A DNA stretch of 64,000 bases from a virus (Duplodnaviria; Caudoviricetes). The position numbers and the translations under genes are program-made. Positions 1 through 16,604 of this stretch are shown piece by piece. The stretch lies in IMG/VR virus record IMGVR_UViG_3300016471_001002, positions 128,001-192,000 of that record; one strand, given 5' to 3'. The first letter of the stretch is position 1, and each line of letters begins with the position of its first letter. The notes below the pieces were generated by a model. That model worked only from the letters and a program-made list of their open reading frames with translations, searched no databases and was not told the origin of the DNA.

Positions 1-80
1 GAGTGTGATTGTATCGTTTTCTGGAACGAAGATTTCATTCCTTTCATATGGGAAAACCTAACACTCCTCTCGGAGGTACC

Positions 81-1981: not shown

Positions 1982-2241
1982 GTAAATTTAACCCCGGTGA
2001 TTCGGTTCGGATCAGATCTGATCCAAATCACCCAACGGATCAACATCGAATTTACGATTTCCCGGAGAAGATCCGCTGGGCTGGAGAATCCATAGTTCCT
2101 CGGAGTTTCATCGGTAAGGTTCCGGGTGGTTCAATTGGAATCGTGGTGGAGATAAAAGAGGAACAGTGTAAGGTTCTGTTTTTCGGTGGTGAGGTTTTCG
2201 GATGGGTGAGTGAGAACAAATTAGTTGGGGAGGCAGAGTGA
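1978..2241 (+). CDS. small SH3-like protein
   Basis: FNPGDSVRI...KVLFFGGEVFGWVSENKL. Confidence 0.75.
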   Translation: MSKFNPGDSVRIRSDPNHPTDQHRIYDFPEKIRWAGESIVPRSFIGKVPGGSIGIVVEIKEEQCKVLFFGGEVFGWVSENKLVGEAE

Positions 2242-2257
2242 ATCTAGGAAAACTTTT

Positions 2258-3151
2258 TCAACCTTCCCGTTGAAGTTTTTCTAACCTTTTCTTTTCCCGC
2301 CCTAATCTCTGTTTTTCCTTCACCATTGCTCTATATTCAGGATTTTCCCACTGTTTCTTTCTTATTTCACTCATCTTTTTCCTGTGCTCAGGATCCTCCC
2401 ACATTTTCTTACTCGATTCAGAAATCTTTTCTTTATACTCAGGATCCTCCCACTTTTTCTTGCTGGATTCAGAAATCTTTTCTCTATACTCAGGATCCTC
2501 CCACTTTTTTTTATGTGATTCTCTCATCTTTTCTCTATATTCAGGATTTTCCCACTGTTTCTTTACTGATTCGCTTAATTTTCCCCTGCGTTCAGGACCC
2601 TCCCACACCTTCTTTCTAGATTTACTCATCTTTTCCTTGTGCTCAGGATCCTCCCACATTTTCTTTTGAGTTTCGCTCATCTTTTTTCTTTGTTCAGGAT
2701 CTTCACACCTTTTTTTATGTGATTCACGCATCTTTTTTTTGAACATGGGATCTTCCCACATCTTCTTACTTTTTTCCTGATGTTTTTTTCTTTGTTCAGG
2801 ATCTTCGAGCCTTTTTTTATGTGATTCACTCATCTTTTTTTTAACTTCTTCAGTGTACTTGTATCCTGAAACACCATCTCCACCAAGGGTAAAATTCGCT
2901 CCACCTTTTCCATGATGAACATATGTTTGAAGTTCCCCAATGAGTTGAATCTCTTTCTCAAATGATTCTTGCTCACTGCGAGTTTCAAAAACAATTTCTC
3001 TGATGATCCCATGCTTGTTTTTGATTCTTGTGTGAAGATGATTTCTTTCTAGATCTTTAACTCTACTTTCATCACCTTTCCCAACGTAGAAGGGCTTTCT
3101 ATCATCACCTCTGAAATCAACATACACGAAGAATTTCTTCTCAATTTCCAT
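2258..3151 (-). CDS. GIY-YIG-type free-standing homing endonuclease with C-terminal ~14-aa helical repeats
   Basis: FFVYVD..KPFYVGKG..R...E...I...NFTLGGDG; repeats KKxWEDPEYREKMS. Confidence 0.8.
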   Translation of the reverse strand: MEIEKKFFVYVDFRGDDRKPFYVGKGDESRVKDLERNHLHTRIKNKHGIIREIVFETRSEQESFEKEIQLIGELQTYVHHGKGGANFTLGGDGVSGYKYTEEVKKKMSESHKKRLEDPEQRKKHQEKSKKMWEDPMFKKKMRESHKKRCEDPEQRKKMSETQKKMWEDPEHKEKMSKSRKKVWEGPERRGKLSESVKKQWENPEYREKMRESHKKKWEDPEYREKISESSKKKWEDPEYKEKISESSKKMWEDPEHRKKMSEIRKKQWENPEYRAMVKEKQRLGREKKRLEKLQREG

Positions 3152-3214
3152 ATCAATAAATATACTCTAAGTACCTAAAAAGATAACAAAAACAATGGTT
3201 TTTGATAGGTTTTA

Positions 3215-3243
3215 TGTAAATTTAAGGGATCATAGAGTAGAAA
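3215..3243 (+). promoter_or_regulatory. early-type promoter
   Basis: TGTAAA-N17-TAGAAA, matches recurring consensus. Confidence 0.5.
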
Positions 3244-3281
3244 ATTATAAGATTGAGAAGTTATAGTTTGTTCGGAGAAAA

Positions 3282-4922
3282 ATGAAAACCAGCAAAATTT
3301 TTTTGATCATATGTACCCTGGTTTCAGGGGCATTCCTTTCTTACCCGAAGATCCTCCGGTGGCAGGTAGAGAAAAGGTTACCAGGAGTTGAATTCACGGA
3401 TGTAAATCTAGAGTTGTTACCTTTCGTGCTCACCCTATCAGGGGTTACCTTCAACCGTGGGTGGATCTCCGGTGATCTGGAAAGTATAACCTCTGATTTC
3501 CGCGGTGAACATGTTGTTCTGAGGGGTGGAAACCTGACCGTGAACCTGGATGATAAACCAGAAGGGGATGATAAACCGGATGGGTTTACCGTTCAAAAGA
3601 GGGATATTCAACTAAGAAACCTTGGTGTGAAGGTATCCCACACGGGGCACAACATCACCATGGAAGGTGTTCGAACCGATGGCCCCAAGGTGTGTTTCTC
3701 CTCGGCCAGGTTGGAGGTTCCAAACATCACCACCGGGAACGGTTGTTTCAACCGGGAAGATGATAGTTTCACCGTGGGCCGGGCAGAAATGAAGTTGATG
3801 AAGTTCAGAGGTGCTGAGGTAAAGAACCTCACCGCAGAGAACATCACCTTCAACACCAAAACCAAGGTGGCCCAGGTGGATAAGGTAGGGGTTCAGGTAA
3901 CCTTCGAAGGCCAAGAATTCCTCATCGATTCTCACGGTGTGATGGCATCCAGAAAACCCGATACCATCAAGGTTGAATCACTAAAGGTAAAACATCCATG
4001 GTTGGCCGGGGATTGGTTGGAACTAGGAAAGGTGAGTGTTGGCCACGGAGACAGGTGGAGCCTCACCGTTGGGGGTTCCCACATCGGGGTTGAACCAAAA
4101 TCACTTACGATTTCAGGGGAGGAGGAATGCGGAACCTGGATCGATTCACTTCCGCCCAACCTGAAGATCGGCCCACTTTCAGGGGTGAAGATGACAGGTA
4201 AATCCAGTTTTTCCATCGGGTTCCGTCCCAAACCTACCTTCAACCTCAGGTCCGATTGCAGGGCCCGGTGTGATTCACTTCCAAACCTACGGAAGCCATT
4301 CCGCTACACGGCCTATGATCCCAAAGGAAAACCATTCGAGAGGGAGACCGGCCGAGGTACCAGAAGCTGGGTTTCATTGTTGATGACCGGAGATATGCCC
4401 CTGGCCGTAACCACCATGGAGGATCCTGGTTTCGAACATCACCGTGGATTCATTGTTCAGGCCTTCAGCAACAGTTTCCTGGATAACCTAAAACAAGGCC
4501 GTTTTCTCCGAGGTGGAAGTACCATCACAATGCAGTTGGCCAAGAACCTCTGGTTGACCCGAGAAAAAACCTTGGGTAGAAAGGTTCAGGAATTCTTCTT
4601 ATCTCAGGCCCTGGAATCTTGTTATTCCAAGGATGAGATCATGGAGTTGTACCTAAACGTTGTTGAATTTGGCCCTAATCAGTATGGAGTTGGAAACGGT
4701 TCCATGTATTGGTTCCACAAGGGCCCTGGTGAATTGGTACCAACCGAGGCATTTTGGTTGGCCAGTATCCTACCTCGGCCTAGTAGAACACAACCTCCAA
4801 CCGATTCTAGTTTGAAACACGTGGAAGGTTTGATGAAACGTTTGGCCGAGGATGGCCGTATTCCTAATTTCACGGATGATATGGTGGAACCCGAGGAAGT
4901 GCAAAACCCCGAGGAGCCATGA
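3282..4922 (+). CDS. membrane-anchored peptidoglycan glycosyltransferase (GT51 transglycosylase domain, no transpeptidase)
   Basis: N-terminal hydrophobic helix; EDxxFxxHxG, RGGSTITMQLAKNL, RKVQE, ELYLN motifs. Confidence 0.9.
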   Translation: MKTSKIFLIICTLVSGAFLSYPKILRWQVEKRLPGVEFTDVNLELLPFVLTLSGVTFNRGWISGDLESITSDFRGEHVVLRGGNLTVNLDDKPEGDDKPDGFTVQKRDIQLRNLGVKVSHTGHNITMEGVRTDGPKVCFSSARLEVPNITTGNGCFNREDDSFTVGRAEMKLMKFRGAEVKNLTAENITFNTKTKVAQVDKVGVQVTFEGQEFLIDSHGVMASRKPDTIKVESLKVKHPWLAGDWLELGKVSVGHGDRWSLTVGGSHIGVEPKSLTISGEEECGTWIDSLPPNLKIGPLSGVKMTGKSSFSIGFRPKPTFNLRSDCRARCDSLPNLRKPFRYTAYDPKGKPFERETGRGTRSWVSLLMTGDMPLAVTTMEDPGFEHHRGFIVQAFSNSFLDNLKQGRFLRGGSTITMQLAKNLWLTREKTLGRKVQEFFLSQALESCYSKDEIMELYLNVVEFGPNQYGVGNGSMYWFHKGPGELVPTEAFWLASILPRPSRTQPPTDSSLKHVEGLMKRLAEDGRIPNFTDDMVEPEEVQNPEEP

Positions 4923-4928
4923 TAGGAT

Positions 4929-5123
4929 GTGGTTATGGATGTTGGTGATTTGTGTTTTACCAATTTCTTTGGTGAACCACACCGAGCGGGGATAATCCTG
5001 AGAGTTGGGTGGAATTCCTATGGGATTGTATCCTACCTAACCCTCCTCCCTGATGGGAAACAGGTTTATTTCCGCCCGGAACAAATCATCCTCCCCGAGG
5101 AGTTTCAAAAATATCATGAGTGA
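4929..5123 (+). CDS. small SH3/KOW-like protein
   Basis: VGDLCF...AGIILRV. Confidence 0.65.
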   Translation: MVMDVGDLCFTNFFGEPHRAGIILRVGWNSYGIVSYLTLLPDGKQVYFRPEQIILPEEFQKYHE

Positions 5124-5442
5124 AATAAACACGGTATTCATCACCTCCCTCCTCACCCTCGATGGAAAACTACTCGATGAGGTTGATTGGAAAATTGGAG
5201 ATATGGTTCGTTTCCTTTACTCCAGTTCCACCGGAACCATTGTGAGAAAAACCTCCGATAATCAGGTGGAGGTTTTATGGGGTGATTTTTACAATCCCTT
5301 CCACGATACATTGGGGAGGCCCGGAGGTAGGATTAACTACGATCAGGTTGCAAGGAATTTATTCACCGTGGAACCTCTTCCTCAAGGTGCAATTCCTTTC
5401 TACCTGGATATGGTGGAAAAAAGAATGAAGGGTGATGAGTGA
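5116..5442 (+). CDS. hypothetical protein with KOW-like segment
   Basis: WKIGDMVRF...TGTIV...VEVLW. Confidence 0.65.
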   Translation: MSEINTVFITSLLTLDGKLLDEVDWKIGDMVRFLYSSSTGTIVRKTSDNQVEVLWGDFYNPFHDTLGRPGGRINYDQVARNLFTVEPLPQGAIPFYLDMVEKRMKGDE

Positions 5443-5485
5443 AATTCCTCCACCTCATGTGGTACCTTGATCAAGGAGAAGAAGG

Positions 5486-5758
5486 ATGAGCAAAGAAATC
5501 GATACCGAGAAGTGGTTGAGTTGTTTGTTTTCCGAGTTAATCAGGCGTGGGTTGGATAGTGATGAACACCTACATTTTAAAGATTCCCCTCTAGGTGGTT
5601 CTCCTGCCCCGAGCCGGGTAGAGTTGATGGTGGCCCACCTTGGTTACACGGGTGAGTTTCTAACGGAACTTCTCCAGGAACACCTCGAGAGGATCCTCCA
5701 TGATTACGGAAAGTTGGAGGCCGGGTTACATGCACCACCCCCAGGAGATTCGAAGTGA
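5486..5758 (+). CDS. hypothetical protein
   Basis: SD plus upstream TGAAAT-N17-TACCTT promoter. Confidence 0.6.
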   Translation: MSKEIDTEKWLSCLFSELIRRGLDSDEHLHFKDSPLGGSPAPSRVELMVAHLGYTGEFLTELLQEHLERILHDYGKLEAGLHAPPPGDSK

Positions 5759-6081
5759 ATAAATCCCGTTATGAAATTCATCTTGATCCACCACTCGCAC
5801 CGGAACAAGGAATCACCAAGGAAAACCACCAGTTATTGGAATTGTTCTTCCTCGCACCACCTCACATTGGGGAATGGTTTCTAAAACTACCTGATGTTCA
5901 GGATAGAATGGTGGTTAACTTCACCGATTCCAAGTACCACCCGGATTCCTACCGGGAAATGATTGTGGAGCTCCTGGAGGAAATGAACCGAAACCGGTGC
6001 GGTGAGTTTCCAGAGGATCTAAAGGAAGTCATGAAGATCCTAAAGGTTGGTGAGGATGTGCAAAGTTCCGCGGGAGGATGA
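5755..6081 (+). CDS. hypothetical protein
   Basis: coupled ORF in operon. Confidence 0.6.
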   Translation: MNKSRYEIHLDPPLAPEQGITKENHQLLELFFLAPPHIGEWFLKLPDVQDRMVVNFTDSKYHPDSYREMIVELLEEMNRNRCGEFPEDLKEVMKILKVGEDVQSSAGG

Positions 6082-6087
6082 TAAGGT
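6059..6087 (+). promoter_or_regulatory. early-type promoter with TTCCGCGG spacer (copy 1)
   Basis: TGCAAA-gttccgcgggaggatga-TAAGGT. Confidence 0.65.
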
Positions 6088-6093
6088 GGAACC

Positions 6094-6315
6094 ATGAGCA
6101 ACCCCAAGAACATCAATGATGTGATTCATGATCTCGATGTGTTGATCATGGATCTTCAAAAAATTCATGATGAACACTGGATCAAGAGCACCGCAAAGGG
6201 AACCACATCCAAGAGGATCTTAAGGGTTCTTTCTATCCTCAACACCCAGTTCCAGGAACTTGATGATCTTGAAATTCTGGTGAATGATGAGATGAAGGTG
6301 GAGGAGAGCAAGTGA
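6094..6315 (+). CDS. hypothetical helical protein
   Basis: ORF directly after promoter. Confidence 0.6.
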   Translation: MSNPKNINDVIHDLDVLIMDLQKIHDEHWIKSTAKGTTSKRILRVLSILNTQFQELDDLEILVNDEMKVEESK

Positions 6316-6587
6316 GCAATTCCGATAAAAATCCGTGCAAGGAAATCGATCTTGGGGTTCACGATGAAATCGATTACATCTCCAGGAAGATCAGAGAAGC
6401 CCTAGGAACCCAACACATCGGTGAGAATCAATCCCGTGAGATCCTTGAGAAACAGTTTAATAGTGATCGGGAATACATAAGGAACCTGTACGAGAACATC
6501 CTCAAGGAGAAGTGCGTAGAGTTGGGAATCGATCCTGAATCACTTCGTGTGGATTGGGGATCAATGAAGGTGGAGGAGAAACAATGA
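6312..6587 (+). CDS. hypothetical protein
   Basis: coupled ORF. Confidence 0.6.
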   Translation: MSNSDKNPCKEIDLGVHDEIDYISRKIREALGTQHIGENQSREILEKQFNSDREYIRNLYENILKEKCVELGIDPESLRVDWGSMKVEEKQ

Positions 6588-6775
6588 AGAAGATTTGGAT
6601 CGTAGTTCAATCAACTCCGGATCCTGATTATGAGTGTGGTAGGATTAAGTGCCTTAGTGCTCATAGTTCAAAGAAGAAGGCAGAGGTTTGGTTGAACGAT
6701 AACGAAAAGATGTACAAGGAAGATTTTAGTTCATTTCAGATCCAATCGGTTCCTTGGGAGGAGGATAAACCGTGA
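6584..6775 (+). CDS. hypothetical protein
   Basis: ATG 6584 after GGAGG; IWIVV...SAHSSKKKAE. Confidence 0.6.
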   Translation: MKKIWIVVQSTPDPDYECGRIKCLSAHSSKKKAEVWLNDNEKMYKEDFSSFQIQSVPWEEDKP

Positions 6776-6963
6776 AGAAATCAAAATCAAAGTTTTGTTC
6801 CAATTGCGGTGATCTGATTCCTGAAGGAAAGGAATTCATCGAGTTCAAAGGTTCATACTTTCACGATGATAAGGTAACCTGCATCGGAAACCTAAAGGTT
6901 ACGGTTGAAACCCTCAGGAGAAAGTTGATCGAGATCAATTCGATCACCAACGATATCCCATGA
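6772..6963 (+). CDS. small Zn-finger-like protein
   Basis: CSNCG...H....C. Confidence 0.55.
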   Translation: MKKSKSKFCSNCGDLIPEGKEFIEFKGSYFHDDKVTCIGNLKVTVETLRRKLIEINSITNDIP

Positions 6964-7463
6964 AAATCAATCAAGATCTTGTAACCAAAACCTTCCAGTG
7001 TAGGAATGGAACCTCTGGGTTGTACCATGATCCAGGTGATGTGAAGTTTATCCAAGAGGTTCTACAGAGAAACCTTGGTGTTTTTGTTAGTGAATCCGAG
7101 GTGATCGATTTTTGGCACTGGAGATCCAACGAATGGGATTCTTCTTTTCTCTCAATCAATTACCATGATGATGTTGAAATCCTGGAATGGTTCCAAAAAT
7201 TCATTGAATTTGTTGGGGTTGAACCTGATGAGGATGAAGAAAATATTCCTCAACCATCTCCAAGGGTTGGTGTGAAGGTTGTGGTGAAGGATGAGGAAGG
7301 AATCCCATGGGAGATCGAATTGGATCCTGATTATCACTCACAACTTATCCAGGATATTGAATCCCAGATTCCAGAAAATAGTGAAGGTGGATCCGTTCGA
7401 TATTCCTTGGAATATGATCCCAAAAAGATTTGGAACATGAGAAAGTTGGATGAGAAGAAATAA
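6960..7463 (+). CDS. hypothetical protein (putative target of endonuclease cassette 2)
   Basis: 167-aa coupled ORF; internal segment duplicated at 8526-8600. Confidence 0.65.
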   Translation: MKINQDLVTKTFQCRNGTSGLYHDPGDVKFIQEVLQRNLGVFVSESEVIDFWHWRSNEWDSSFLSINYHDDVEILEWFQKFIEFVGVEPDEDEENIPQPSPRVGVKVVVKDEEGIPWEIELDPDYHSQLIQDIESQIPENSEGGSVRYSLEYDPKKIWNMRKLDEKK

Positions 7464-7483
7464 AAGAACAGAGATCTAAAAGA

Positions 7484-8449
7484 TCAATTAGAATCTTTTC
7501 CCTCAGCTTCTTTTTTAAGCTTGTTTAATCTTCTTGTTTCCCAACACTTTTTAAGGTGTTCTTTCTTTTGTTCAGGGGTTCTTTTGCTATGAGCTTCTTT
7601 CATTTTTTTGATTCTTAAATCTCTTATATCAGGATCTTCCCACTGTTTTTTTGCGATCTGTTTGGATCTTTTTTTATATTCAGGTTTGTTTACTGCTTTC
7701 TTTATTGATTCTCTAGTTTTTTCTTTGTAATCAGGATCTTCCCATCTTTTCTTATTTAACTCACTCATCTTTTCTCTGAGCTCAGGATTTTCCCAGGTTT
7801 TCTTCAAAGAATCACTCAACGTTTTTCTAAGCTCAGGATCTTCCCACGCCTTTTTCATAGAAGCTTTTCGAGATGATTTATGCTCAGGATCTTCCCAAAT
7901 CTCTTTTGTTTTTTCACTTATGTTTTTTCTGTACTCTTCATCTTTTCTTGCTTCTATTTGTTTCTCTCTAAATTCATAATTTTCCCATGCTTTTTTTGTT
8001 AAATCAGAAAACTTCGTTCCAAGTTTTTCTCTCGAATCAGAATCATTCCAAATCTCTTGCATTGATTTTTTAATTGATTCACTAGTTTTTCTCTTGTATT
8101 CTTCATCTTCCCATATTGATTTTACGGAGTTTCTTATTTTTTCTTTGCTTTCTTCACTTATCCCAACACAACCTTCTCCACCAAAGGTAAAATTTGATCC
8201 ACCTTTTCCAAAATCAACATGTGTTTCAAGCTCTTGGATAAGCTCAATTTCTCTTTTAAAAGCTTCATTTTCATCAACATGTTCAGAATCAATTTTTCTG
8301 ATTATCCCATGCTTGTTTTTTATTCTTTCATGAAGTTGATTTCGATTTAGATCTTTAATTCTCGATTTAGTTCCTTTTCCTACATAAAAAGGTTTTCCAT
8401 CATCTTCACGATAATCCACATAAACGTAAAACATTCCTCTTATCTCCAT
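7484..8449 (-). CDS. GIY-YIG-type homing endonuclease with helical repeats
   Basis: FYVYVDYREDDGKPFYVGKG; paralog of 2258 and 13366; start placed by ATATTTAT-N4-ATG. Confidence 0.8.
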   Translation of the reverse strand: MEIRGMFYVYVDYREDDGKPFYVGKGTKSRIKDLNRNQLHERIKNKHGIIRKIDSEHVDENEAFKREIELIQELETHVDFGKGGSNFTFGGEGCVGISEESKEKIRNSVKSIWEDEEYKRKTSESIKKSMQEIWNDSDSREKLGTKFSDLTKKAWENYEFREKQIEARKDEEYRKNISEKTKEIWEDPEHKSSRKASMKKAWEDPELRKTLSDSLKKTWENPELREKMSELNKKRWEDPDYKEKTRESIKKAVNKPEYKKRSKQIAKKQWEDPDIRDLRIKKMKEAHSKRTPEQKKEHLKKCWETRRLNKLKKEAEGKDSN

Positions 8450-8489
8450 TACCATAAATATAAGTAAAGATAAGAAAAAAGATTCTTTT

Positions 8490-8518
8490 TGTAAATTTAA
8501 TAGAACCTTTGATATGGT
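8490..8518 (+). promoter_or_regulatory. early-type promoter
   Basis: TGTAAA-N17-TATGGT with TG extension. Confidence 0.65.
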
Positions 8519-8525
8519 TAGAAAT

Positions 8526-8600
8526 ATGAAACATTTAGAATTCTTCTCCGAGTTTCTACAACATGTTGGGGTGGAAATTGATGAGGAGGATGAACCATGA
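8526..8600 (+). pseudogene. 24-aa mini-ORF, displaced homolog of part of 6960-7463
   Basis: MKHLEFFSEFLQHVGVEIDEEDEP vs LEWFQKFIEFVGVEPDEDEE; ATGA-coupled to 8597. Confidence 0.6.
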
Positions 8601-8872
8601 AGAAAGTAACAAAGATCAAAAGATCACCTAGAATTGTTCAAAAGGTTGAGAATGAAGGGTGTGAAACCATCTATTGGATCGGTAATTCCGCATTCATTCA
8701 TTATGAGGATGAGGAAGGTAGTTCAGATAAGAAACATACCATTAGTACCGATGGTAGGTTTTATAGGGAAGTAGGAAGTTCCAGTTCACCAGATTCGGTG
8801 AGCATCACAGTTGTTTCACCAGATTTCACGATTATTAATTACTGCTACGAACCAATCCCTGAGGAACCATGA
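8597..8872 (+). CDS. hypothetical protein
   Basis: SD and coupling. Confidence 0.6.
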   Translation: MKKVTKIKRSPRIVQKVENEGCETIYWIGNSAFIHYEDEEGSSDKKHTISTDGRFYREVGSSSSPDSVSITVVSPDFTIINYCYEPIPEEP

Positions 8873-9090
8873 AGAAACTTAAGGTTGAGAGCATCCAAAC
8901 TGATCACAGGATTGAAAATGAATCTGATCTTGGTATTGCATTGAAACACCATAATCAGATGGCAAGATTGGGAGGATTGGTTCCTGATGCAATTGAACCA
9001 ATTGAGATCAACCTGAAGAATATCAAACTGGATTCTAATGGAAAACCTATTCTAACCATTGAAACGAAGGTGGGAGAAACTAATGAATAA
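8869..9090 (+). CDS. hypothetical protein
   Basis: coupled ORF. Confidence 0.6.
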   Translation: MKKLKVESIQTDHRIENESDLGIALKHHNQMARLGGLVPDAIEPIEINLKNIKLDSNGKPILTIETKVGETNE

Positions 9091-9394
9091 CATTGATCTA
9101 AGCGGTGTGTTTGATGGTGTAAAACCACAGGAGGATAACGTTCTTCCTCGTTTGGTTACCATGATCCAGGTTACGGAACCGATCCAGGAGAAGGATGTTC
9201 CAAAGAGATTGTTGGTAACCGTTAACGGTGGTGAGGTGATCAGGTACCAGAGCCTTTCCCACCTTCCGGTGGAGGTTGTGAGGGTGATCGATACACTTCC
9301 AGGTTTCGTGGGTTTCAATAAGGATATCCTCCTGGAAAAGATCGATAATCTCCGGAACGCGGTGGAGAATCTAAAAGTGGAGGAGGAACCATGA
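9083..9394 (+). CDS. hypothetical protein
   Basis: ATG 9083 after GGAG. Confidence 0.6.
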   Translation: MNNIDLSGVFDGVKPQEDNVLPRLVTMIQVTEPIQEKDVPKRLLVTVNGGEVIRYQSLSHLPVEVVRVIDTLPGFVGFNKDILLEKIDNLRNAVENLKVEEEP

Positions 9395-9783
9395 AGAAGA
9401 TCTTGGTGAATGATGGATTGAGGGAATTTCTTGATCCAAAGGAATTTTTTGTAAAGAGATATGATGAGAACATGAAGGAAGGAAACACCGAGTGTTTTGG
9501 GCTCCGCCAAACCGGGAGAACAACTCGGATGATTATTGAAACAATCCAGAAGGTTGTGGAGAATCCTGAATTAAAGTTCACCATTCTTACCCACAATTGG
9601 GATATGGTTCCTCGGATCATCCATGTGATGAACCACTATGCACACCAAATGGATGTTAAAATCCCAAATGATTCCATTAGTGTTGTTCCTGATGTGGAAC
9701 TTGGTTTCACCGGAGCAACAGTGTTGAGGGATAATGGAATCACCGATGTGAGAATCACCAAGGAATTGAGGGAGAAACCATGA
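9391..9783 (+). CDS. hypothetical protein with degenerate P-loop-like RQTGRTT
   Basis: Walker-A-like motif only. Confidence 0.55.
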   Translation: MKKILVNDGLREFLDPKEFFVKRYDENMKEGNTECFGLRQTGRTTRMIIETIQKVVENPELKFTILTHNWDMVPRIIHVMNHYAHQMDVKIPNDSISVVPDVELGFTGATVLRDNGITDVRITKELREKP

Positions 9784-10031
9784 GCGGAGATAATCAACCA
9801 GAAACAGTTTCGGTTCCTGTAACCCAACAGGATTTCATGGTGATCCGGGCATCACTTCACCACTCGATCTCATTCTGGGGCCATGCCCTGGAAACTGGGG
9901 AATATCCAGAAAACTTTGATGAAGGAAAAGCAAAGGAGATCCTCCAGATGAGCAGGGATGTTATCGAGAAAGTGAACATGATCTTAACCATGAAACCGAT
10001 TTCTTCCCAGAATGTTGGAGTTACACATTGA
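9780..10031 (+). CDS. hypothetical protein
   Basis: coupled ORF. Confidence 0.6.
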   Translation: MSGDNQPETVSVPVTQQDFMVIRASLHHSISFWGHALETGEYPENFDEGKAKEILQMSRDVIEKVNMILTMKPISSQNVGVTH

Positions 10032-10216
10032 ACCCAATCCCTCTATATTCTCCACCCCGATTCCCCAGGTTCTTCCGTTCAAAACCCGGTGAAATTAGTG
10101 AAGGTAGGTGTTGGTGTTGTTCCCACGGTGCTTATCTGTACATCGGAACTTCACTGTGGAACCTCATCTGGATCTTCATCAAAGAGTTTAAATCGGATCG
10201 GCATCTCGTGGGTTAA
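10028..10216 (+). CDS. hypothetical protein
   Basis: coupled ORF, CWCC motif. Confidence 0.55.
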   Translation: MNPIPLYSPPRFPRFFRSKPGEISEGRCWCCSHGAYLYIGTSLWNLIWIFIKEFKSDRHLVG

Positions 10217-10217
10217 G

Positions 10218-10246
10218 TGTAAAGTTCCGCGGGGTGATGATATACT
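10218..10246 (+). promoter_or_regulatory. early-type promoter with TTCCGCGG spacer (copy 2)
   Basis: TGTAAA-gttccgcggggtgatga-TATACT. Confidence 0.7.
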
Positions 10247-10252
10247 AGAACC

Positions 10253-10618
10253 ATGGAAACCAAGAAAACCCCTAAGAAACCAAAACACAAACACTTCTGG
10301 GAGTTTCATTCCTGGGTAAAAGGCCCAAAGAGCCCAAAGGATAACTACCAAACCTGGGATTTCGAGGTTGAATACAGGTGTTCCTGTGGGAAGAACCAAA
10401 AGGTTGAACCCAGTGAGGAAGAACTGAAACAATACATCAAGGATTCCATGTGTGATTACTGCGGTGAACTTCATGAACAACATGAGGATCCTCGTGAATG
10501 TATCACGGTTCTTCGAACCAAGGTGGTTGGGCTAGAGGATCGCCTGGAAAAACTAGAGGATCAAATGGATTCCATCCGAAGGGTGTTCAGGGATTCCGTT
10601 GATCGAGATCGATGGTGA
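10253..10618 (+). CDS. Cys/His-rich hypothetical protein with coiled-coil end
   Basis: CSCG, CDYCG..H. Confidence 0.6.
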   Translation: METKKTPKKPKHKHFWEFHSWVKGPKSPKDNYQTWDFEVEYRCSCGKNQKVEPSEEELKQYIKDSMCDYCGELHEQHEDPRECITVLRTKVVGLEDRLEKLEDQMDSIRRVFRDSVDRDRW

Positions 10619-10621
10619 ACC

Positions 10622-10879
10622 ATGAGGAAGAAGAAGATGGGATTTTACTCAACCAACTTTCAAGATTCGGAAGAGAACAACATCTCGATCCACTACTCAC
10701 CTGAATACAAGCAATTTTCGGTATCCATCACCGATGGGCACGGAGAAAGAACTAATTCAATTGAGATGGGTTATGAGGATCTCCGTTCTCTATTCAAAGA
10801 AGCCGAGAACATCTTCTTTCAACATGAAGGGTTGATTGATGATGAACGGAGTTTCCCAAAACCAAACACAGAGGATTGA
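10622..10879 (+). CDS. hypothetical protein
   Basis: ORF in operon. Confidence 0.6.
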   Translation: MRKKKMGFYSTNFQDSEENNISIHYSPEYKQFSVSITDGHGERTNSIEMGYEDLRSLFKEAENIFFQHEGLIDDERSFPKPNTED

Positions 10880-10882
10880 ATC

Positions 10883-11071
10883 ATGAAAGCCAAAGTTACT
10901 GCTCGATACTGGGATTCTGAACTCCAATCCAGGTTTGGTTCATTTGATTCAATCCATAATTTTCCAAATGATACCGAAACATTCCTGAAGGAAGTTATGA
11001 AGTTCGGTAGGTTTGAAACGAAGTTGGAAGGTGATCTACTCACCCTTGAGTTCCAAAACGATTACGATTGA
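10883..11071 (+). CDS. hypothetical protein
   Basis: ORF in operon. Confidence 0.6.
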   Translation: MKAKVTARYWDSELQSRFGSFDSIHNFPNDTETFLKEVMKFGRFETKLEGDLLTLEFQNDYD

Positions 11072-11247
11072 ATCATGAAACCCGAGAAAAACTTCTTCTT
11101 CTCTGCCAAAAATTCATACGAGATAATGAGATAGGTTGTTCCGAATCCATCTACCAATCGGATAGGATCATCCTAAATTCACCGGATTTCATTCGTGAAA
11201 TTTGTGATCTGGTTGGTTACCATCAATTCGAGGAGGATGAAAAGTGA
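11068..11247 (+). CDS. hypothetical protein (59 aa, below ORF-track cutoff)
   Basis: TTG start overlapping upstream stop; LCQKFIRDNEIGCSESIYQSD; fills the gap exactly. Confidence 0.6.
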   Translation: MNHETREKLLLLCQKFIRDNEIGCSESIYQSDRIILNSPDFIREICDLVGYHQFEEDEK

Positions 11248-11531
11248 TTCTATATAATGATTACGAACAAGTTGAAACCTGGGAAGATCTTGATGATCTT
11301 GTGAAAAGGATGTATGGCCCCGTTCCAATCACCAACCGGATGGTAACACCTCATCTCCCCAAGGAATGGGATGAGAAGAACCAGTACCCCTGGAAGAACG
11401 GTGAACCAGTTCTATTCCTCGGTGAAGTGATTGGTATGCCAGGCCACGGTGTTTTTGTGGGTAAGGATGGCCTAGTGAAGTTTGGGTACCACACAGATTC
11501 CTTCAAGGTTATTCCAAAGGATGAACTATGA
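11244..11531 (+). CDS. conserved phage-type hypothetical protein
   Basis: VLFLGEVIGMPGHGVFVGKDGLVKFGYHTDSF. Confidence 0.65.
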   Translation: MILYNDYEQVETWEDLDDLVKRMYGPVPITNRMVTPHLPKEWDEKNQYPWKNGEPVLFLGEVIGMPGHGVFVGKDGLVKFGYHTDSFKVIPKDEL

Positions 11532-11959
11532 ATCCCGATCAAAAATACCTGATCAAATACAAAGATCCCTTTGATTCCAACACCAAAAACCGATATTGGT
11601 TCAAGGATCATGAGGAATGGATTCCAGATCCAAGTGGAGCAACACTTTTTACTCAGGAAGGTGGTGTAAGAGAGGTTGGTAGGTTACTGGTGGATTATGA
11701 GTGGATCACAAAATTGATTCCCTCGGAGGAAATTCCAAAGGTAAAACCTGTTTCACCTCCAAGCGGGGATTTCATTCTCATTGTTGATTGTGATGGAGAT
11801 CCTCAGGAAGTTTTTGGGGGAAATGTAAACCTTGATCAGGTATTCCAGTTGATCGATAAACTGGATCGTGAATCAGGTTATCATCCACATTCCGCCTGGA
11901 GGAGGTGCGCAGGTGGATTTACTCGGGTGTTTGAAAGAATTGGAAAGGATCCAAAGTGA
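11528..11959 (+). CDS. hypothetical protein
   Basis: coupled ORF. Confidence 0.6.
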   Translation: MNPDQKYLIKYKDPFDSNTKNRYWFKDHEEWIPDPSGATLFTQEGGVREVGRLLVDYEWITKLIPSEEIPKVKPVSPPSGDFILIVDCDGDPQEVFGGNVNLDQVFQLIDKLDRESGYHPHSAWRRCAGGFTRVFERIGKDPK

Positions 11960-12183
11960 AAAACGAATCACTTGATTTTTTGGTGGAGAAGGGAGATATT
12001 GTTTTTTACACCTATGAAAATCTGGATGAGGAAGGTAATCCAGGTGAAGGTGAGTTTAGAAACACCGAGAGGTTAACCCTTCTATTTCCAAGTGGAAATA
12101 ATTTGATCCTGGATACGTGTTGTTCCGGTATGAATCAAAACACTGTTTTGATGATGGAATTATTGAAAGTAGATCCAAAGTGA
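11956..12183 (+). CDS. hypothetical protein
   Basis: coupled ORF. Confidence 0.55.
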   Translation: MKNESLDFLVEKGDIVFYTYENLDEEGNPGEGEFRNTERLTLLFPSGNNLILDTCCSGMNQNTVLMMELLKVDPK

Positions 12184-12452
12184 AACTCGAGCAACTTGGG
12201 AGGGATACCAACGGAGGTATTTCCTCCCTTCCACAAATTAAATCAGGTAAGAACCGTGGTTTTAGAAAACCTGAGGTTGGTGGTAATTGGTTGTGTACCG
12301 GTGGTTATACCCACGATTCTCGGTGGGATGAGAAGAATGCCCACGGCTCATGGCTCACTTCCATGGAGAAAATCGGGTTCCGCACCGGAAAATATGAACT
12401 GGATGGGGTGGTTAACCTATATGTTTGGGTGCAAAATTCCGCGGGGGGATGA
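12180..12452 (+). CDS. hypothetical protein
   Basis: GTG start overlapping upstream stop. Confidence 0.55.
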   Translation: MKLEQLGRDTNGGISSLPQIKSGKNRGFRKPEVGGNWLCTGGYTHDSRWDEKNAHGSWLTSMEKIGFRTGKYELDGVVNLYVWVQNSAGG

Positions 12453-12458
12453 TAGAAT
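12430..12458 (+). promoter_or_regulatory. early-type promoter with TTCCGCGG spacer (copy 3)
   Basis: TGCAAA-attccgcggggggatga-TAGAAT. Confidence 0.7.
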
Positions 12459-12464
12459 AAAAAT

Positions 12465-12752
12465 ATGAACACCACACCAACCCGAATCGATCTGGTTCAA
12501 CTCTGGATGGAAACCCACTTCAAGGGGATTCCCTGTGCTGTTTTCTTCGATCCTCTAGGGGATGGTGATAGAATCTCACTGTTCATCGATAAACTCGGAA
12601 TCTCCTGCGGAACAGGTATGGGGCAAATCATCAACTCCAACTTTCTCATCCTACCATCACCCAACCCAGATTCACTAGTGAACAACCTCAAACAAGACAC
12701 CTGGGGCTTCGCAATGAGCTGGAATGGAAACAATTTCACGAGTGAGAATTAA
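12465..12752 (+). CDS. hypothetical protein
   Basis: ORF after promoter. Confidence 0.6.
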   Translation: MNTTPTRIDLVQLWMETHFKGIPCAVFFDPLGDGDRISLFIDKLGISCGTGMGQIINSNFLILPSPNPDSLVNNLKQDTWGFAMSWNGNNFTSEN

Positions 12753-12768
12753 TAGATATTTAACCTCC

Positions 12769-13068
12769 ATGAAGATATCAATCAATCAACTCCGCAGGAT
12801 TATCAAGGAAGAAGTTCAAACACTCACCGAGGCAGGAGATCCAAACAAAATCAAGTTTGAAGAAATCAAACAATCACTGGTTGATTTCCTCCAATCCAAC
12901 GGTGAACTGGTTTCAGGTGATGTTGTTCTACAAGGAAATACCATCAAGTTCCACATCTATGATCAAGATGCCCCAGATCTTCAATCACAACCCAGAGTTA
13001 AGATAACCCTGGAACTAGAACCCAGCATGGCACAACTTCGAGATGAAAATCCAGAGGTTTTCCTGTGA
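12769..13068 (+). CDS. MKIT-tag family protein
   Basis: MKISINQLRRIIKEEV; TATTTA 6 nt upstream of ATG. Confidence 0.7.
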   Translation: MKISINQLRRIIKEEVQTLTEAGDPNKIKFEEIKQSLVDFLQSNGELVSGDVVLQGNTIKFHIYDQDAPDLQSQPRVKITLELEPSMAQLRDENPEVFL

Positions 13069-13084
13069 GAATTAAAGGATAAAA

Positions 13085-13393
13085 ATGTCGGGAGGAGCCA
13101 TTCACCCACAATACCTGTACTACCAGGTGAACCAATTCGCGGATGAACTTGAGAACCGAATCGAAAACAACAATGTTCCGGATGAATACGGTTATGCCCC
13201 AAACCTCCCGGATGATATCCTCGATTACCTAAAACTCCAGGTTTCCAACCTAAGGAAAATCTCCGAGGTGATGAGAGCAACGGACTATTTATTTGCTGGT
13301 GACCATGGACCCGAAAATTTTCTAAAGATCATTGAGAAAATTGAAAAAAGTATTCAGGCTCTACATCAGGTATTTGACTCAATTTCCTGTTGA
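13085..13393 (+). CDS. conserved phage hypothetical (MSGG... family), putative target of endonuclease cassette 3
   Basis: 3' end overlaps endonuclease stop; tail homolog at 14438. Confidence 0.7.
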   Translation: MSGGAIHPQYLYYQVNQFADELENRIENNNVPDEYGYAPNLPDDILDYLKLQVSNLRKISEVMRATDYLFAGDHGPENFLKIIEKIEKSIQALHQVFDSISC

Positions 13394-14340
13394 AGTTTTT
13401 TTAACCTTCTGGTTTCCCACCCCTTTTTAAGTCTCTCGCTTCTTTGCTCGGGTGTGAGTTCAGCTAATTTCGATTTTATAGATTCACTTGTTTTTTTCTT
13501 ATGTTCAGGATCCTCCCACAATTTTTTTCTTATTTCGCTCATTTTTTCTCTATATTCAGGATCCTCCCACGATTTTTTTCTTATTTCACTCATTTTTTCT
13601 TTGAACTCAGGATCCTCCCATTTCTTTTTGTTGGCTTCGCTTTGTTTTCTTTTGTATTCAGGATCGTTTCGTATTTTTTTCATTTTGTGATCCGGATTTT
13701 CCCAGGATTTTCTAATAGATTCTTTATGCTTTTCCTTGATCTCAGGTTTTTTTAGAGAATCTTTGATAGCTTCGCTGTGCTTCTTTAATAATTCAGGATC
13801 TTCCCAAACTTTTTGTTGTTGTTCACTGCATTTTTTTCTGAGTTCAGGGTCACTCCAAGTTTTCTTAAATGATTCACTCATCCTTTCCTTGAATTCAGGA
13901 TTCTCCCATTTCTTTCTTTTTGTTGCCTTCATTCTTTCTTTTCTATCCTGGTTTTCCCAAGATTTTTTTTGTAATTCACTCATCCTTTCTTTGAACTCAG
14001 GATTTTCCCACTTCTTTTTACAGGCCTCTCTTTGTTCTTCGTTCCATTTGTAGCCTGTTGTTCCATCTCCGCCAAGGGTAAAATTGGCACCACCTTCACC
14101 AAAATCAACATGGGTTTTTAGTTCCTGGATAAGTTCGACTTCTTTATCAAATGCCTCTTGTTGATTGATGGTTTCAAATAGGACTTTCCTAACCATGCCA
14201 TGCTTATTTTTGATTTTGGCGTGAAGAGGATTTCTTTTTGATTTTCTCACTCTACAATCTACACCTTTTCCAACATAAAAAGGTCTTCCATCATCCTCTC
14301 GATAATCAACATAAACAAAGAATTTTTGTTCGGTTTCCAT
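13366..14340 (-). CDS. GIY-YIG-type homing endonuclease with helical repeats
   Basis: FFVYVDYREDDGRPFYVGKG; WEDPE repeats; ATATTTAT-N4-ATG start. Confidence 0.8.
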   Translation of the reverse strand: METEQKFFVYVDYREDDGRPFYVGKGVDCRVRKSKRNPLHAKIKNKHGMVRKVLFETINQQEAFDKEVELIQELKTHVDFGEGGANFTLGGDGTTGYKWNEEQREACKKKWENPEFKERMSELQKKSWENQDRKERMKATKRKKWENPEFKERMSESFKKTWSDPELRKKCSEQQQKVWEDPELLKKHSEAIKDSLKKPEIKEKHKESIRKSWENPDHKMKKIRNDPEYKRKQSEANKKKWEDPEFKEKMSEIRKKSWEDPEYREKMSEIRKKLWEDPEHKKKTSESIKSKLAELTPEQRSERLKKGWETRRLKKLQQEIESNT

Positions 14341-14437
14341 ATCCATAAATATGGAAAAAGATTATAAAAAGCCATATTTTTATATGGTTTCGTGTAAATT
14401 TTCAGATTTTTATATACTGTTTCTACTAATAAAAAGT

Positions 14438-14512
14438 ATGAAGAATATTTCTGGCGATCATAACGAGTTAAGCTTCATGAAAACCATCGGGAAAATCGAG
14501 GCTGAAAAATAA
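14438..14512 (+). pseudogene. 24-aa mini-ORF, displaced native 3' end of 13085 gene
   Basis: SGDHNELSFMKTIGKIE vs AGDHGPENFLKIIEKIE (9/17 identical). Confidence 0.65.
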
Positions 14513-14515
14513 ATC

Positions 14516-14731
14516 ATGGAACTCCGCATCGGTGATCAATGCTCAATTTGGAACGGAAATTCATCCATCTCAGATTCACGAAACTGGCTCATCGGCATCG
14601 TGATGAAAAAGAAGAACCACAAATACTGGAATGAAACTCGATACCAAGTTTTCTGGCACGATTTGTTAAAAGATACTACGTGGTACACTGCGAATGAGAT
14701 CAAATTAGATGAAACTCGGTTCTCTCGTTAA
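14516..14731 (+). CDS. small SH3/KOW-like protein
   Basis: LRIGDQC...IGIV...YQVFW. Confidence 0.7.
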   Translation: MELRIGDQCSIWNGNSSISDSRNWLIGIVMKKKNHKYWNETRYQVFWHDLLKDTTWYTANEIKLDETRFSR

Positions 14732-14900
14732 AATCCACCCAATCGATCATCTTTCACGTGAATTCCGCGGTGAACTTGGAACTCTATTAGATCTAGAGAT
14801 TCACAACTATCTCTCAGAGAAATTCTATTACGCAAAAGTGATGCTCCTCTCAGGGAAGATTATCTTCACCTCCCAAAATTCGCTGGAATTTATCAGTTAA
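14709..14900 (+). CDS. small SH3/KOW-like protein
   Basis: MKLGSLVKI...LGTLLD...AKVML. Confidence 0.7.
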   Translation: MKLGSLVKIHPIDHLSREFRGELGTLLDLEIHNYLSEKFYYAKVMLLSGKIIFTSQNSLEFIS

Positions 14901-14965
14901 AGGTAATAATTACCCCTATGAAGATCACAGTTTCACAACTCCGTAAAATCATCAAGGAAGAAGTT
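14862..14965 (+). repeat. ~104-bp imperfect direct repeat, copy 1 (copy 2 at 15305-15408)
   Basis: atcttcacctcccaaaattc...taataattacccctATGaagat...gaagaagt; offset 443. Confidence 0.85.
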
Positions 14966-15187
14966 TCTAGAATTATTGAAGAGAATATCAACATTGATCG
15001 AATGGTGCTTGATGAACACTATGAGGTTTATCAGGAAACCACTCGTAGTGGTGCAATACTCTACAAGGTGAAGTTCACTGCACCAAAGGATCTTCCACGT
15101 TTCATTTGGGTGAATCCAAATGGTTCCTGGATTGGCAGGAATTCTAAAATGCTAAACGATGATATCGTTGCGAGTGGAAATTTTTGA
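14918..15187 (+). CDS. MKIT-tag family protein
   Basis: MKITVSQLRKIIKEEV; TAATTA-N5-ATG. Confidence 0.75.
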   Translation: MKITVSQLRKIIKEEVSRIIEENINIDRMVLDEHYEVYQETTRSGAILYKVKFTAPKDLPRFIWVNPNGSWIGRNSKMLNDDIVASGNF

Positions 15188-15271
15188 AATATGATGAAGA
15201 TAGATTCCGTAATGCCATCCAAAAGATTGAAGGCAAACTAACCTTTTTAAGGGTGATGAATAATTAATCCC

Positions 15272-15343
15272 ATGAAACTCACAACGGCACAACTCAAACA
15301 AATCATCTTCACCTCCCAAAATTCTCTGGAATTTATCAATTAA
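15272..15343 (+). pseudogene. chimeric mini-ORF (tag fused to tail of 14709 gene)
   Basis: MKLTTAQLKQII+FTSQNSLEFIN*. Confidence 0.6.
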
Positions 15344-15408
15344 AGGTAATAATTACCCCTATGAAGATTACCGTATCGCAACTCCGTAAGATCATCCGTG
15401 AAGAAGTG
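15305..15408 (+). repeat. ~104-bp imperfect direct repeat, copy 2
   Basis: see copy 1. Confidence 0.85.
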
Positions 15409-16107
15409 CAGAGGAACATCTCTGAAGCCAAGTTCAACGTGGGTGATAAGGTAGAGGAAAAAGGAACCGATTCCGGTTGGTGGGAGGTTCTAGAATTAAT
15501 TCCCGATAATAGAACAGGTAAAACCGTTGCCAAATTACAAATGTTTCAACCTGTGGGTGGTAGAACACCAATCACACACGTAACAACGGATAAACTTGCT
15601 AAAGTTAGAGAATCTCTATCACATCCAGGTTCTTCACCCCTGAAGGATGGTGGTGTTGTTAACCGTGAATCCGGAGAGATTCTGGTTATGGATAGTGTTC
15701 CTCCTCAATACCTCGATCACATTGAGGTTGATGAGATGGGTTATACCACACTTCCAAATGATAAGTTTGAGGAACTTCGTGGTGAATTGAAGGGATTATC
15801 CGCAGGGAAACCAAAGAAACAACGATTAGCACCCTTCCAACTCAACAAGGGATCCAAGGGTTTCAATGATTACATCCGGGATGTTGATAGGGATATGCCA
15901 ACCTCATGGGATTCTCCAGATCCTCAGGATGTTCACGATGAATTTCTTAAGTTAAGGGATTATGATGGTGAAGTTCCACTCAAAATGCTAGCGGCCGGCT
16001 TAGGGGTAGAACCCAACCAAATCGATTGGAACGGAACCGGTTTAAGGGTGATGAACGGTGTTGTTACTGAACTCATCGGCGATACCCCCTACAGAACCAA
16101 TAGGTGA
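15361..16107 (+). CDS. MKIT-tag protein with KOW-like domain and possible C-terminal HTH
   Basis: MKITVSQLRKIIREEV; AKFNVGDKV; VPLKMLAAGLGVEP. Confidence 0.7.
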   Translation: MKITVSQLRKIIREEVQRNISEAKFNVGDKVEEKGTDSGWWEVLELIPDNRTGKTVAKLQMFQPVGGRTPITHVTTDKLAKVRESLSHPGSSPLKDGGVVNRESGEILVMDSVPPQYLDHIEVDEMGYTTLPNDKFEELRGELKGLSAGKPKKQRLAPFQLNKGSKGFNDYIRDVDRDMPTSWDSPDPQDVHDEFLKLRDYDGEVPLKMLAAGLGVEPNQIDWNGTGLRVMNGVVTELIGDTPYRTNR

Positions 16108-16119
16108 TCATCAGCACAA

Positions 16120-16150
16120 AAGGTAACCCACATTTAACTTTCGTGCAAAA
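16120..16150 (+). repeat. 31-bp direct repeat (second copy 16598-16628), overlaps -35 of promoter 16144-16172
   Basis: aaggtaacccacattta(a/c)ctttcgtgca(a/c)aa. Confidence 0.8.
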
Positions 16151-16178
16151 TACCTCATGGCGATGTTAAAATACCTCC

Positions 16179-16403
16179 ATGGCTCCACAACTCGGTGATC
16201 TAATCCACATCATAAAAGATACCCACGGCTACCCAGATAACTGGATCCGCGGCACAGATCCAATCAGATTCCCAAACGGCTCCACTGGCATCCTACTGGA
16301 TATCAAACCTTCATCCACAGATGAACCACGAACCTTCTACAAGGTTGCCACCCCACAAGGCACGGTATCCATCTTCGAAGGCTTCACAGAACTCATCAAA
16401 TAA
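16179..16403 (+). CDS. small SH3-like protein
   Basis: LGDLIHI...GILLD...YKVATPQG; after TGCAAA-N17-TAAAAT. Confidence 0.75.
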   Translation: MAPQLGDLIHIIKDTHGYPDNWIRGTDPIRFPNGSTGILLDIKPSSTDEPRTFYKVATPQGTVSIFEGFTELIK

Positions 16404-16415
16404 CGGATCAACACC

Positions 16416-16604
16416 ATGAACATCGGCGATCTTGTTCACGTAAGAAAATCTAACGTGTTTCACCAACTCGGCCTCGGGATCATCCTAGAACTTCACGCCG
16501 AACCCGATCGAACCTACTGCGATGTGTTCTTCCCAGACAGCGGAGAAACCTACGGGATCTTCGATAGAGATCTAGAAAAACTATCGGATCAACACGGAAG
16601 GTAA
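16416..16604 (+). CDS. small SH3/KOW-like protein
   Basis: MNIGDLVHV...GIILE...CDVFF. Confidence 0.75.
   Translation: MNIGDLVHVRKSNVFHQLGLGIILELHAEPDRTYCDVFFPDSGETYGIFDRDLEKLSDQHGR

Follow-up and report, generated by a model that had tools for sequence, protein, structure and literature searches.

A small conserved phage gene with a probable intron-less homing-endonuclease cassette that carries its own replacement gene end

We analyzed a locus in IMG/VR virus record IMGVR_UViG_3300016471_001002, which comes from an uncultured phage. The window, by which we mean the whole 64,000-nt stretch of DNA analyzed, covers bases 128001–192000 of this 211-kb record, the completeness of which is estimated at 65%. 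The locus sits within a block of small plus-strand genes. It opens with the target gene of this report, an open reading frame (ORF) of 102 aa at 13085–13393 (+), which is followed on the opposite strand by a free-standing GIY-YIG homing-endonuclease gene of 326 aa (13366–14346, −), assigned by its match to phrog_314, its fold and its motifs. Next come the upstream region of the endonuclease gene (14347–14437), delimited by aligning the three cassettes of the window, and a mini-ORF of 24 aa (MKNISGDHNELSFMKTIGKIEAEK; 14438–14512, +). The stretch from 13283 to 14452 is a single mobile unit made up of a replacement tail for the target gene, the antisense endonuclease gene, a conserved upstream region and a restart ATG. 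We consider it very likely that this unit is a mobile, intron-less homing-endonuclease cassette inserted within the coding region of a small, conserved gene of the phage.

The target protein is a small three-helix phage protein with 50 close homologues of 75–108 aa, and its family is widespread (185 cluster representatives at E ≤ 1e-3). It had no match in NCBIfam and only a sub-threshold one in Pfam (PhoU_div, E 0.002), and fold searches returned no functional match, only uncharacterised phage proteins from BFVD. The AlphaFold2 model, with a mean predicted local distance difference test score (pLDDT) of 95, places helices at residues 11–27, 43–71 and 76–89. Since the GDHG motif (residues 72–75) forms the loop ahead of helix 3, the tail that is duplicated at this locus corresponds to one structural element. 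Alignments with the 50 close homologues end at residue 87, and the tails among homologues are of the types GPENFLK[IV]IEKIE (T1), NELSFMKTIGKIEGKTNPT (T2), GEDSFRNATQKIEGK (T3) and GTDNFMEVIQKIEKNK (T4).

A first-pass annotation, made from the window alone, had the upstream gene ending at ...KIE. Instead, the frame runs on for 15 codons and a stop (KSIQALHQVFDSISC; 13346–13393, +) into cassette DNA, whereas the homologues stop at residue 87. The 3′ end of the target ORF overlaps that of the convergent endonuclease gene by 28 nt (13366–13393). Small indels at the A-run after the KIE codons (about 13343–13348) change the frame of the extension among cassette-bearing loci, and the extension is incidental. 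We also observed that its length differs by cassette copy, with 15, 10 or 6 junk residues (L009, L111), and that run X5 holds the +A form. Four other homologues of 102–103 aa (P0025, P0032, P0039 and P0042) end in two tandem tail-like segments (...NTVRKIEG, then WNSYLKAIEKVEGK), with a plus-strand gene directly after genes of this type. Such tandem tails might have been left by a cassette since lost, or might have arisen when the tail was duplicated in frame.

The mini-ORF is a composite. It begins with the restart codons ATG AAG AAT ATT (MKNI) and a junction codon (14438–14452, +), continues with a displaced tail remnant of type T2 that corresponds to codons 72–87 of the target gene (GDHNELSFMKTIGKIE; 14453–14500, +) and has 83–84% nt identity to the tails of loci L024 and L010, and closes with AEK and a stop (14501–14512, +). 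This last piece aligns with L010 165–300, at the junction that precedes a 71-aa gene in relatives. The first-pass annotation had already noticed the resemblance of the mini-ORF to the upstream gene end, with 9 of 17 residues identical, and BLASTP bore this out (residues 71–87, E 6e-5 for the pair). The mini-ORF also matches the tail of the cassette-free homologue P0047 at 16 of 19 residues (E 2e-10), so the similarity between the tails is no chance event. The differences between the two copies had been called mostly synonymous, which is imprecise: of the 17 aligned codons, 2 are the same in both copies, 7 show synonymous differences and 8 encode another residue, with 57% nt identity. The mini-ORF does adjoin the following gene, as had been stated, with its stop 3 nt ahead of the next ATG at 14516, but the gene at 14516 differs from the native neighbour found in relatives. 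In L009, the remnant retains the whole native end, GKTNPT.

We compared the window with four further cassette-bearing loci that have readable DNA (L008, L009, L111 and L115; n = 5 with the window) and with the cassette-free loci L010-15, L024-27, L028, L110 and L116. L009 is equivalent to L114, and L111 represents the L112 lineage. Homology of the window to L024 runs at 92% up to 13280 and resumes at 14453, and L024 has 17 nt where the window has 13281–14452. In the second matched pair, L111 and L116, the sequences first diverge at the wobble position of codon 67, which puts the left boundary at codon 66/67 in both matched lineages. The body of the target gene is thus codons 1–66 (13085–13282, +), 96.5% identical to cassette-free L110, and the replacement 3′ end, of type T1, is codons 67–87 (13283–13345, +), comprising the end of helix 2, the GDHG loop and helix 3.

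Relatives occur with and without the cassette at the same site, and both forms are found within single samples. JGI sample 3300016472 contains L020, with the cassette, together with L024, without it. Contigs of four runs were mapped onto this part of the window. Run X3, from another sample, has a contig spanning 13045–14247 with zero differences from the window and also a cassette-free loose end at 13280, and run X6, riverine and from a different study, has pieces of the cassette along with a cassette-free contig that links 13201 to 14456. If the downstream tail is the displaced native end, cassette-free relatives should carry the 14438-type tail, a test set by the first-pass annotation. Such tails were found in P0047 (L010-15) and P0014 (L024-27), as predicted. 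Two relatives complicate the picture: L110 carries T3, and the cassette-free P0004 has a tail similar to the upstream one. Beyond this comparison set, blastn of 11500–16200 against 50,697 phage records gave no match, nor did scans of viral contigs with the target gene and its neighbour as single proteins or for the junction patterns. An alignment-based scan gave 80 loci, none of them with this endonuclease gene adjoining the target gene, except for an unrelated arrangement in L068.

Because this is a metagenome assembly in which both alleles co-occur, and contigs of both forms begin at the same point, one could suspect that strain variants were mis-assembled. Alternatively, a self-splicing intron might join the gene body to the downstream tail. 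Both ideas are barely credible. The 102-aa hybrid product is found identical on 15 contigs from four assembly sources, including JGI, ENA and Logan, both junctions are bridged by contigs of other runs, and the layout recurs in L009, L111 and L112; mis-assembly is excluded by these concordant and bridging contigs. As to splicing, an Rfam cmscan of 12900–15400 at E ≤ 1 gave no group I or group II intron or other RNA family, its lone return being a sub-threshold small RNA match. The endonuclease ORF is separate and antisense, embedded in neither an intron nor an intein. As far as Rfam shows, an intron is excluded, and none is needed, since the upstream ORF is already a complete protein that includes helix 3.

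The cassette is present in at least four gene-body backgrounds (window/L008, L009, L111/L112 and L115). Across the five cassette-bearing loci, the bodies (codons 1–66) are 70–98% identical, and the tails (codons 67–87) are 89–98% identical. Comparisons with the nearest cassette-free alleles give the reverse pattern: the window and L110 agree at 96.5% in the body and 66.7% in the tail, and L111 and L116 at 92.9% and 69.8%, respectively. When the window is compared with L111, the body shows a synonymous divergence (dS) of 2.04, the tail 0.53 and the endonuclease gene 0.79. The dS of the tail is near that of the endonuclease gene and far from that of the body, and the tail therefore shares the history of the endonuclease rather than that of the gene it completes. 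The linkage of tail to cassette in L008, L009, L111 and L115 upholds the earlier proposal of an intron-less mobile unit composed of an alternative 3′ end and an endonuclease.

The downstream remnants follow the recipient. In L111 the remnant (MKNIKSDHGTDNFMDVIQKIEKNK) departs from the native L116 tail at 2 of 57 nt, and identity to L116 stays at 94–96% farther downstream; in L009, the remnant and the DNA that follows match L010. Judged by these alignments, the downstream remnants derive from the recipient in two lineages. The endonuclease genes of the window and L111 are only 83% identical, and the MKNI codons are retained in both with a single synonymous change: ATG AAR AAT ATT, the same in L009 as in the window, with AAA in L111 and L112. 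By the same kind of comparison, the restart ATG is part of the cassette, as the first-pass annotation had proposed.

One could turn the assignment around and take the upstream tail as native, with the remnant imported as baggage of the endonuclease, or suppose that the tail was duplicated in place and that the endonuclease landed later between the copies. The tail of P0004, which is cassette-free and has a window-like body, is of a similar type, and several cassette-type codons just before the GDH codons are common to L110, as such a history would allow. We nevertheless regard it as very improbable, because the upstream tail is near-constant across divergent bodies while the remnant varies with lineage and matches the native allele, because of the dS values above, and because an island of GAC/GTC sites starts exactly at the upstream tail.

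This island is a compositional marker of the cassette. The first 16.5 kb of the window hold about 21 GAC/GTC sites, compared with about 25 per kb elsewhere. Between 12000 and 16000, the sites are at 12696 and 13087, then nine from 13283 to 14283, and then none. The clustering reported in the first-pass annotation is therefore real, and it starts at the homology break; the first three sites of the cassette (13283, 13301 and 13308) fall inside the replacement tail. The cassette has 9 sites per kb, and the block around it about 0.8 per kb. The corresponding values are 10.2 and 0.3 per kb in L009, 9.9 and 0.7 in L008, and 6.0 and 1.7 in L111, while cassette-free L110 has 0 sites in 1.9 kb. The island and the homology break give the same left boundary, 13281–13285. 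Codon 67 is GAC in 5 of 5 cassette-bearing alleles and GAT in 5 of 5 cassette-free alleles read, which makes it a suggestive candidate for an immunity change, with the reservation that the five GAC alleles share descent. The purge of GAC/GTC sites from the early-gene block (window 1–16535) is kept in relatives (L009, L110, L010 1–2127 and L024 1–969). Cassettes 1 and 2 of the window are free of these sites, unlike the present one, cassette 3, which for that reason may be the most recent arrival.

The endonuclease comprises a nuclease domain (14017–14346) and about 11 lysine-rich W-E-D-P-E-type repeats (13366–14016). Its PHROGs match is phrog_314, "homing endonuclease" (E 9e-20). An AlphaFold2 model of residues 1–110, built from 31 homologues (pLDDT 84), shows a sheet of three strands flanked by helices, in the order beta-beta-alpha-alpha-beta-alpha, and in a Foldseek search of the Protein Data Bank (PDB) ranks 1–16 were all GIY-YIG proteins, including PD-T4-3, the UvrC N-domain and I-TevI, at probabilities of 0.91–1.0. 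Template modeling (TM) scores reached 0.63 by target length, with weak E-values (best 8e-3). The motifs V-Y-V (residues 11–13) and Y-V-G (24–26) are present, and Y12, R32, E69 and N88 are invariant in the 31 homologues. As modeled, the antisense gene is a divergent GIY-YIG homing endonuclease. PF01541 appears in 0 of 82 endonuclease homologues in precomputed Pfam annotation, and a single-sequence PDB search gave nothing useful. Searches of Pfam and NCBIfam with the repeats gave only spurious low-complexity matches and no named DNA-binding family; in more distantly related proteins, the nuclease domain is accompanied by NUMOD3 or NUMOD1.

The ratio of nonsynonymous to synonymous divergence (dN/dS) against L111 is 0.14 over 326 codons, in the nuclease domain and the repeats alike, a value by which the endonuclease is under purifying selection. 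The L009 enzyme is a 231-aa form shortened within the repeats. Two paralogues lie in the window, at 2258–3151 (51% identity) and 7484–8455 (45% identity). In a metatranscriptome run, one 157-nt contig lies inside the endonuclease ORF (13461–13617); it is strandless and could be DNA carry-over, and we do not count it as expression. A related endonuclease gene with about 70% nt identity occurs at another locus in L113 (SXGQ01753044.1, 929–1860), where no remnant of the target gene is present. Upstream of this gene lies GTGCAAATTT, a match to GTGCAAA, with which the −35 box of the phage promoter begins.

A third copy of the tail lies farther downstream. This second displaced remnant, of type T3 (EDRFRNAIQKIEGK...; 15196–15267, +), has 90% nt identity to L110 1795–1907 and matches P0006 at 12 of 14 residues (E 3e-7). 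L110, which has the closest cassette-free body, corresponds to window 13091–13309 joined straight to 15196–15307, and the native downstream junction follows the T3 remnant, as in L110 and L010. Three small genes separate the T2 and T3 remnants. The third tail copy, together with the junction-derived end codons of the T2 remnant, makes repeated displacement of the gene end probable in the window's lineage; no intermediate of such displacement was found.

Two observations concern recombination in this region. A 106-nt direct repeat with 89.6% identity (14859–14964 and 15302–15407) spans a gene end, the junction and the start of a MKITVSQLRKII-type leader, and a 23-aa ORF at 15272–15343 is a chimera of a MKLTTAQLKQII leader and the end of a 63-aa gene. 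The short shared junctions look like recombination points. Elsewhere in the window, cassette 2 (6960–8600; endonuclease gene 7484–8455) repeats the layout: residues 75–94 of gene 6960 recur at 11 of 20 identities in a 24-aa remnant ORF (8526–8600) that overlaps the start of the next gene (ATGA), with its ATG three codons ahead of the remnant.

The region upstream of the endonuclease gene (14347–14437) is common to the window's three cassettes, and its first ~58 nt are conserved in L111. It contains TGTAAATTT (14393–14401), which resembles the phage −35 box and occurs in the window only in the three cassettes and at one other site, and TATACT (14413–14418). We built a matrix for the phage's own promoters from 17 in-register leaderless sites in an array beyond the window (G000:C1:205300-211000). 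The motif is GTGCAAAGT, 15 nt, a GATAKRMT-type −10 box, 6 nt and ATG. Other matches to this promoter-plus-ATG motif in the window are at 6056, 10215 and 16141 (+) and 52875 (−), and these sites, with the one at 12427, probably mark operon starts in the early block. The operon containing the target gene seems to begin at the leaderless phage-type promoter near 12427.

The first-pass annotation had endowed the cassette with two promoters. We found no late promoter for the enzyme. The T4-type TATAAATA is absent from the cassette's upstream region. The outward early promoter fared little better. Its boxes, TGTAAA...TATACT, are 14 nt apart, compared with 17 in the phage's own promoters; a sigma-70 scan of 14347–14437 gave no match; and the phage matrix scored the site at −29, against 34–52 for the sites used to build it. 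Box geometry is better elsewhere, with TGTAAA-N17-TATTAT in L111 and TGTAAA-N17-TATGGT-N7-ATG in cassette 2. By its boxes, an outward promoter in cassette 3 is possible, and the restart ORF or such a promoter would at most have a putative role.

These results bear on whether the restart serves any purpose. The restart ORF and the outward promoter could both be functionless, in which case the remnant is a leftover homology arm, its ATG is incidental, and the downstream genes are read through from about 12427 with start signals of their own. We give this reading a little under an even chance. It accords with the promoter results above and with a plus strand that has no terminator-like site inside the cassette, which makes read-through possible. 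There is no Shine–Dalgarno sequence ahead of the ATG at 14438, no restart ATG accompanies the T3 remnant at 15196, and by a rough composition estimate an equally long open frame would arise by chance in such AT-rich DNA about 10% of the time. Other features speak for a functional restart. MKNI is retained, with only AAG changed synonymously to AAA, where the endonuclease gene has diverged to 83% identity, and the remnant ORFs are intact and in frame in 4 of the 4 read (window, L009, L111 and L112). The cassette 2 sequence, with its ATG three codons before the remnant, has the geometry of a leaderless promoter, L111 has the 17-nt spacing, and the stop of the mini-ORF lies 3 nt ahead of the next ATG.

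For the cassette as a whole, we propose the following mechanism. The GIY-YIG enzyme would cut cassette-free alleles in or near the conserved D-Y-L-[FY]-A-G-D-H segment (codons 67–74), and a co-infecting genome that bears the cassette would serve as the repair template. On the left side, repair would copy the cassette version of codons 67–87, so that the gene remains complete and takes its last helix from the cassette. On the right side, repair would resolve in the recipient's own tail, which would be left stranded as a short ORF reopened by the cassette's ATG (MKNI). Since the tail copies are only about 57% identical in DNA, the cassette should not readily recombine out. The placement of the cut in the region of codons 67–74 and the immunity of the replacement tail to cleavage are both predictions from allele comparison.

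Several points weigh against this account. The cassette-free homologue P0004, known from its protein only, has a similar though not identical upstream-type tail (GPDNFLKVIQKIE), so the replacement tail is a natural allele type and not an exotic one. The codons TAT TTA TTT GCT of the cassette type are also present in L110, and the left boundary drawn against L110 is nearer 13310. The five cassette-bearing loci stem from one cassette, and the features they share are not independent. In the window, the T2 remnant is cut short at the 3′ end, the genes after it are non-native, and the further remnant lies downstream; the history of the window exceeds a single clean homing event. Finally, the endonuclease gave no hit to Pfam PF01541 at E ≤ 0.1, and its profile reaches a GIY-YIG protein of solved structure only weakly (E 0.097), so its membership in the family rests on fold and motifs. 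The element itself is real and well delimited, and it is probably still mobile.

Homing endonucleases enter coding sequences mainly by way of self-splicing introns or inteins, and the free-standing homing endonucleases of phages are described as intergenic. A cassette of the kind proposed here would represent a third route into coding sequence in a phage population, in which the element carries a replacement for the gene part that it displaces. For uncultured material the evidence is unusually complete, with matched alleles, recipient-derived remnants, a common left boundary, an enzyme under selection and a compositional marker. Homing of the cassette would account for the reassorted tail alleles and gene bodies of the target family among relatives, and the locus supplies a concrete candidate target site and candidate immunity substitutions. 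The latter are synonymous changes specific to the cassette: GAT to GAC at codon 67, GGR to GGT at codon 72, and GATCAT to GACCAT or GATCAC. For annotation, it means that a short ORF behind an endonuclease gene may represent a displaced gene end and not a gene of its own.

More speculatively, a surrogate gene end plus a restart codon could be a general route for phage endonucleases into coding sequences that needs neither intron nor intein. At each homing event, the C-terminal helix of the target would be exchanged and the old end shifted downstream. We hold this wider idea to be rather doubtful. If it were true, such a locus would accumulate a readable stack of displaced tails (T1, T2 and T3 here), and the endonuclease would be an engine that reshuffles tail alleles among related phages. 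The helix swap itself might then be selected, for example, by altering what a conserved early protein binds.

Among known systems, I-TevI offers a likeness in fold, its catalytic domain matching the model at TM 0.56–0.63, and in geometry. I-TevI cuts 23–25 nt upstream of its insertion site, and the tract that is always co-converted here (codons 67–72) starts about 18 nt upstream of the insertion point. Unlike in the I-TevI system, no intron was found, and a duplicate gene end, not splicing, solves the coding problem. The T4-type Seg (GIY-YIG) and Mob (HNH) enzymes are free-standing and undergo intronless homing with co-conversion and marker exclusion (PMC2988022, PMC2330249). The present cassette resembles them in its free-standing GIY-YIG gene, its presence/absence polymorphism, the inheritance of flanks with the endonuclease gene, and a modular enzyme with a nuclease domain and a repeat region that may bind DNA. 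Seg and Mob genes normally occupy intergenic positions, and in their conversion tracts the flanks are replaced but not duplicated, whereas here the insertion is inside an ORF and a fixed replacement end is part of the element. In addition, the present enzyme is missed by the Pfam GIY-YIG model, and no named DNA-binding family corresponds to its C-terminal repeats.

Genes split by endonucleases are known in Aeh1 (nrdA/mobE), T4 (genes 39 and 60/mobA) and phage 25 (gene 43/seg) (PMC2988022). As in those cases, the cassette lies within a coding region and the downstream part is restarted as a separate ORF. In split genes, however, both halves are needed and reassemble, whereas the upstream ORF here is complete and the restarted piece is a redundant 16-codon copy.

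Our literature search turned up no description of a phage cassette that carries a replacement gene end, although such absence is not proof. The closest parallel is in fungal mitochondria, in the "gene hybrids" formed by mobile ORFs (mORFs) in Glomus atp6, atp9, cox2 and nad3 (PMC3630166), in the atp6 hybrid of Allomyces macrogynus (Paquin et al. 1994, as cited in PMC3630166), and in partial C-terminal duplications of atp6 and cob flanked by GIY-YIG or LAGLIDADG ORFs (PMC6279837). In both settings, a gene body is joined to a foreign in-frame C-terminus and followed by an endonuclease ORF, beyond which the native C-terminus is left stranded. By phylogeny, the inserted copy disagrees with the gene body, whereas the native one matches that of close relatives. 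The DNA of the two C-terminal copies has diverged strongly, and GIY-YIG enzymes are among the carriers. The host here is a bacteriophage and not an organelle. Mitochondrial mORFs lie on the same strand as their target and are often fused to it in phase (Glomus atp6 and nad3), whereas the phage endonuclease gene is convergent and unfused, with a 28-nt overlap. The phage cassette also supplies an ATG that reopens the remnant, the recipient origin of the remnant can be demonstrated in two lineages, and a second, older remnant lies downstream. The phage cassette can be classed as a variant of an element type already known in organelles.

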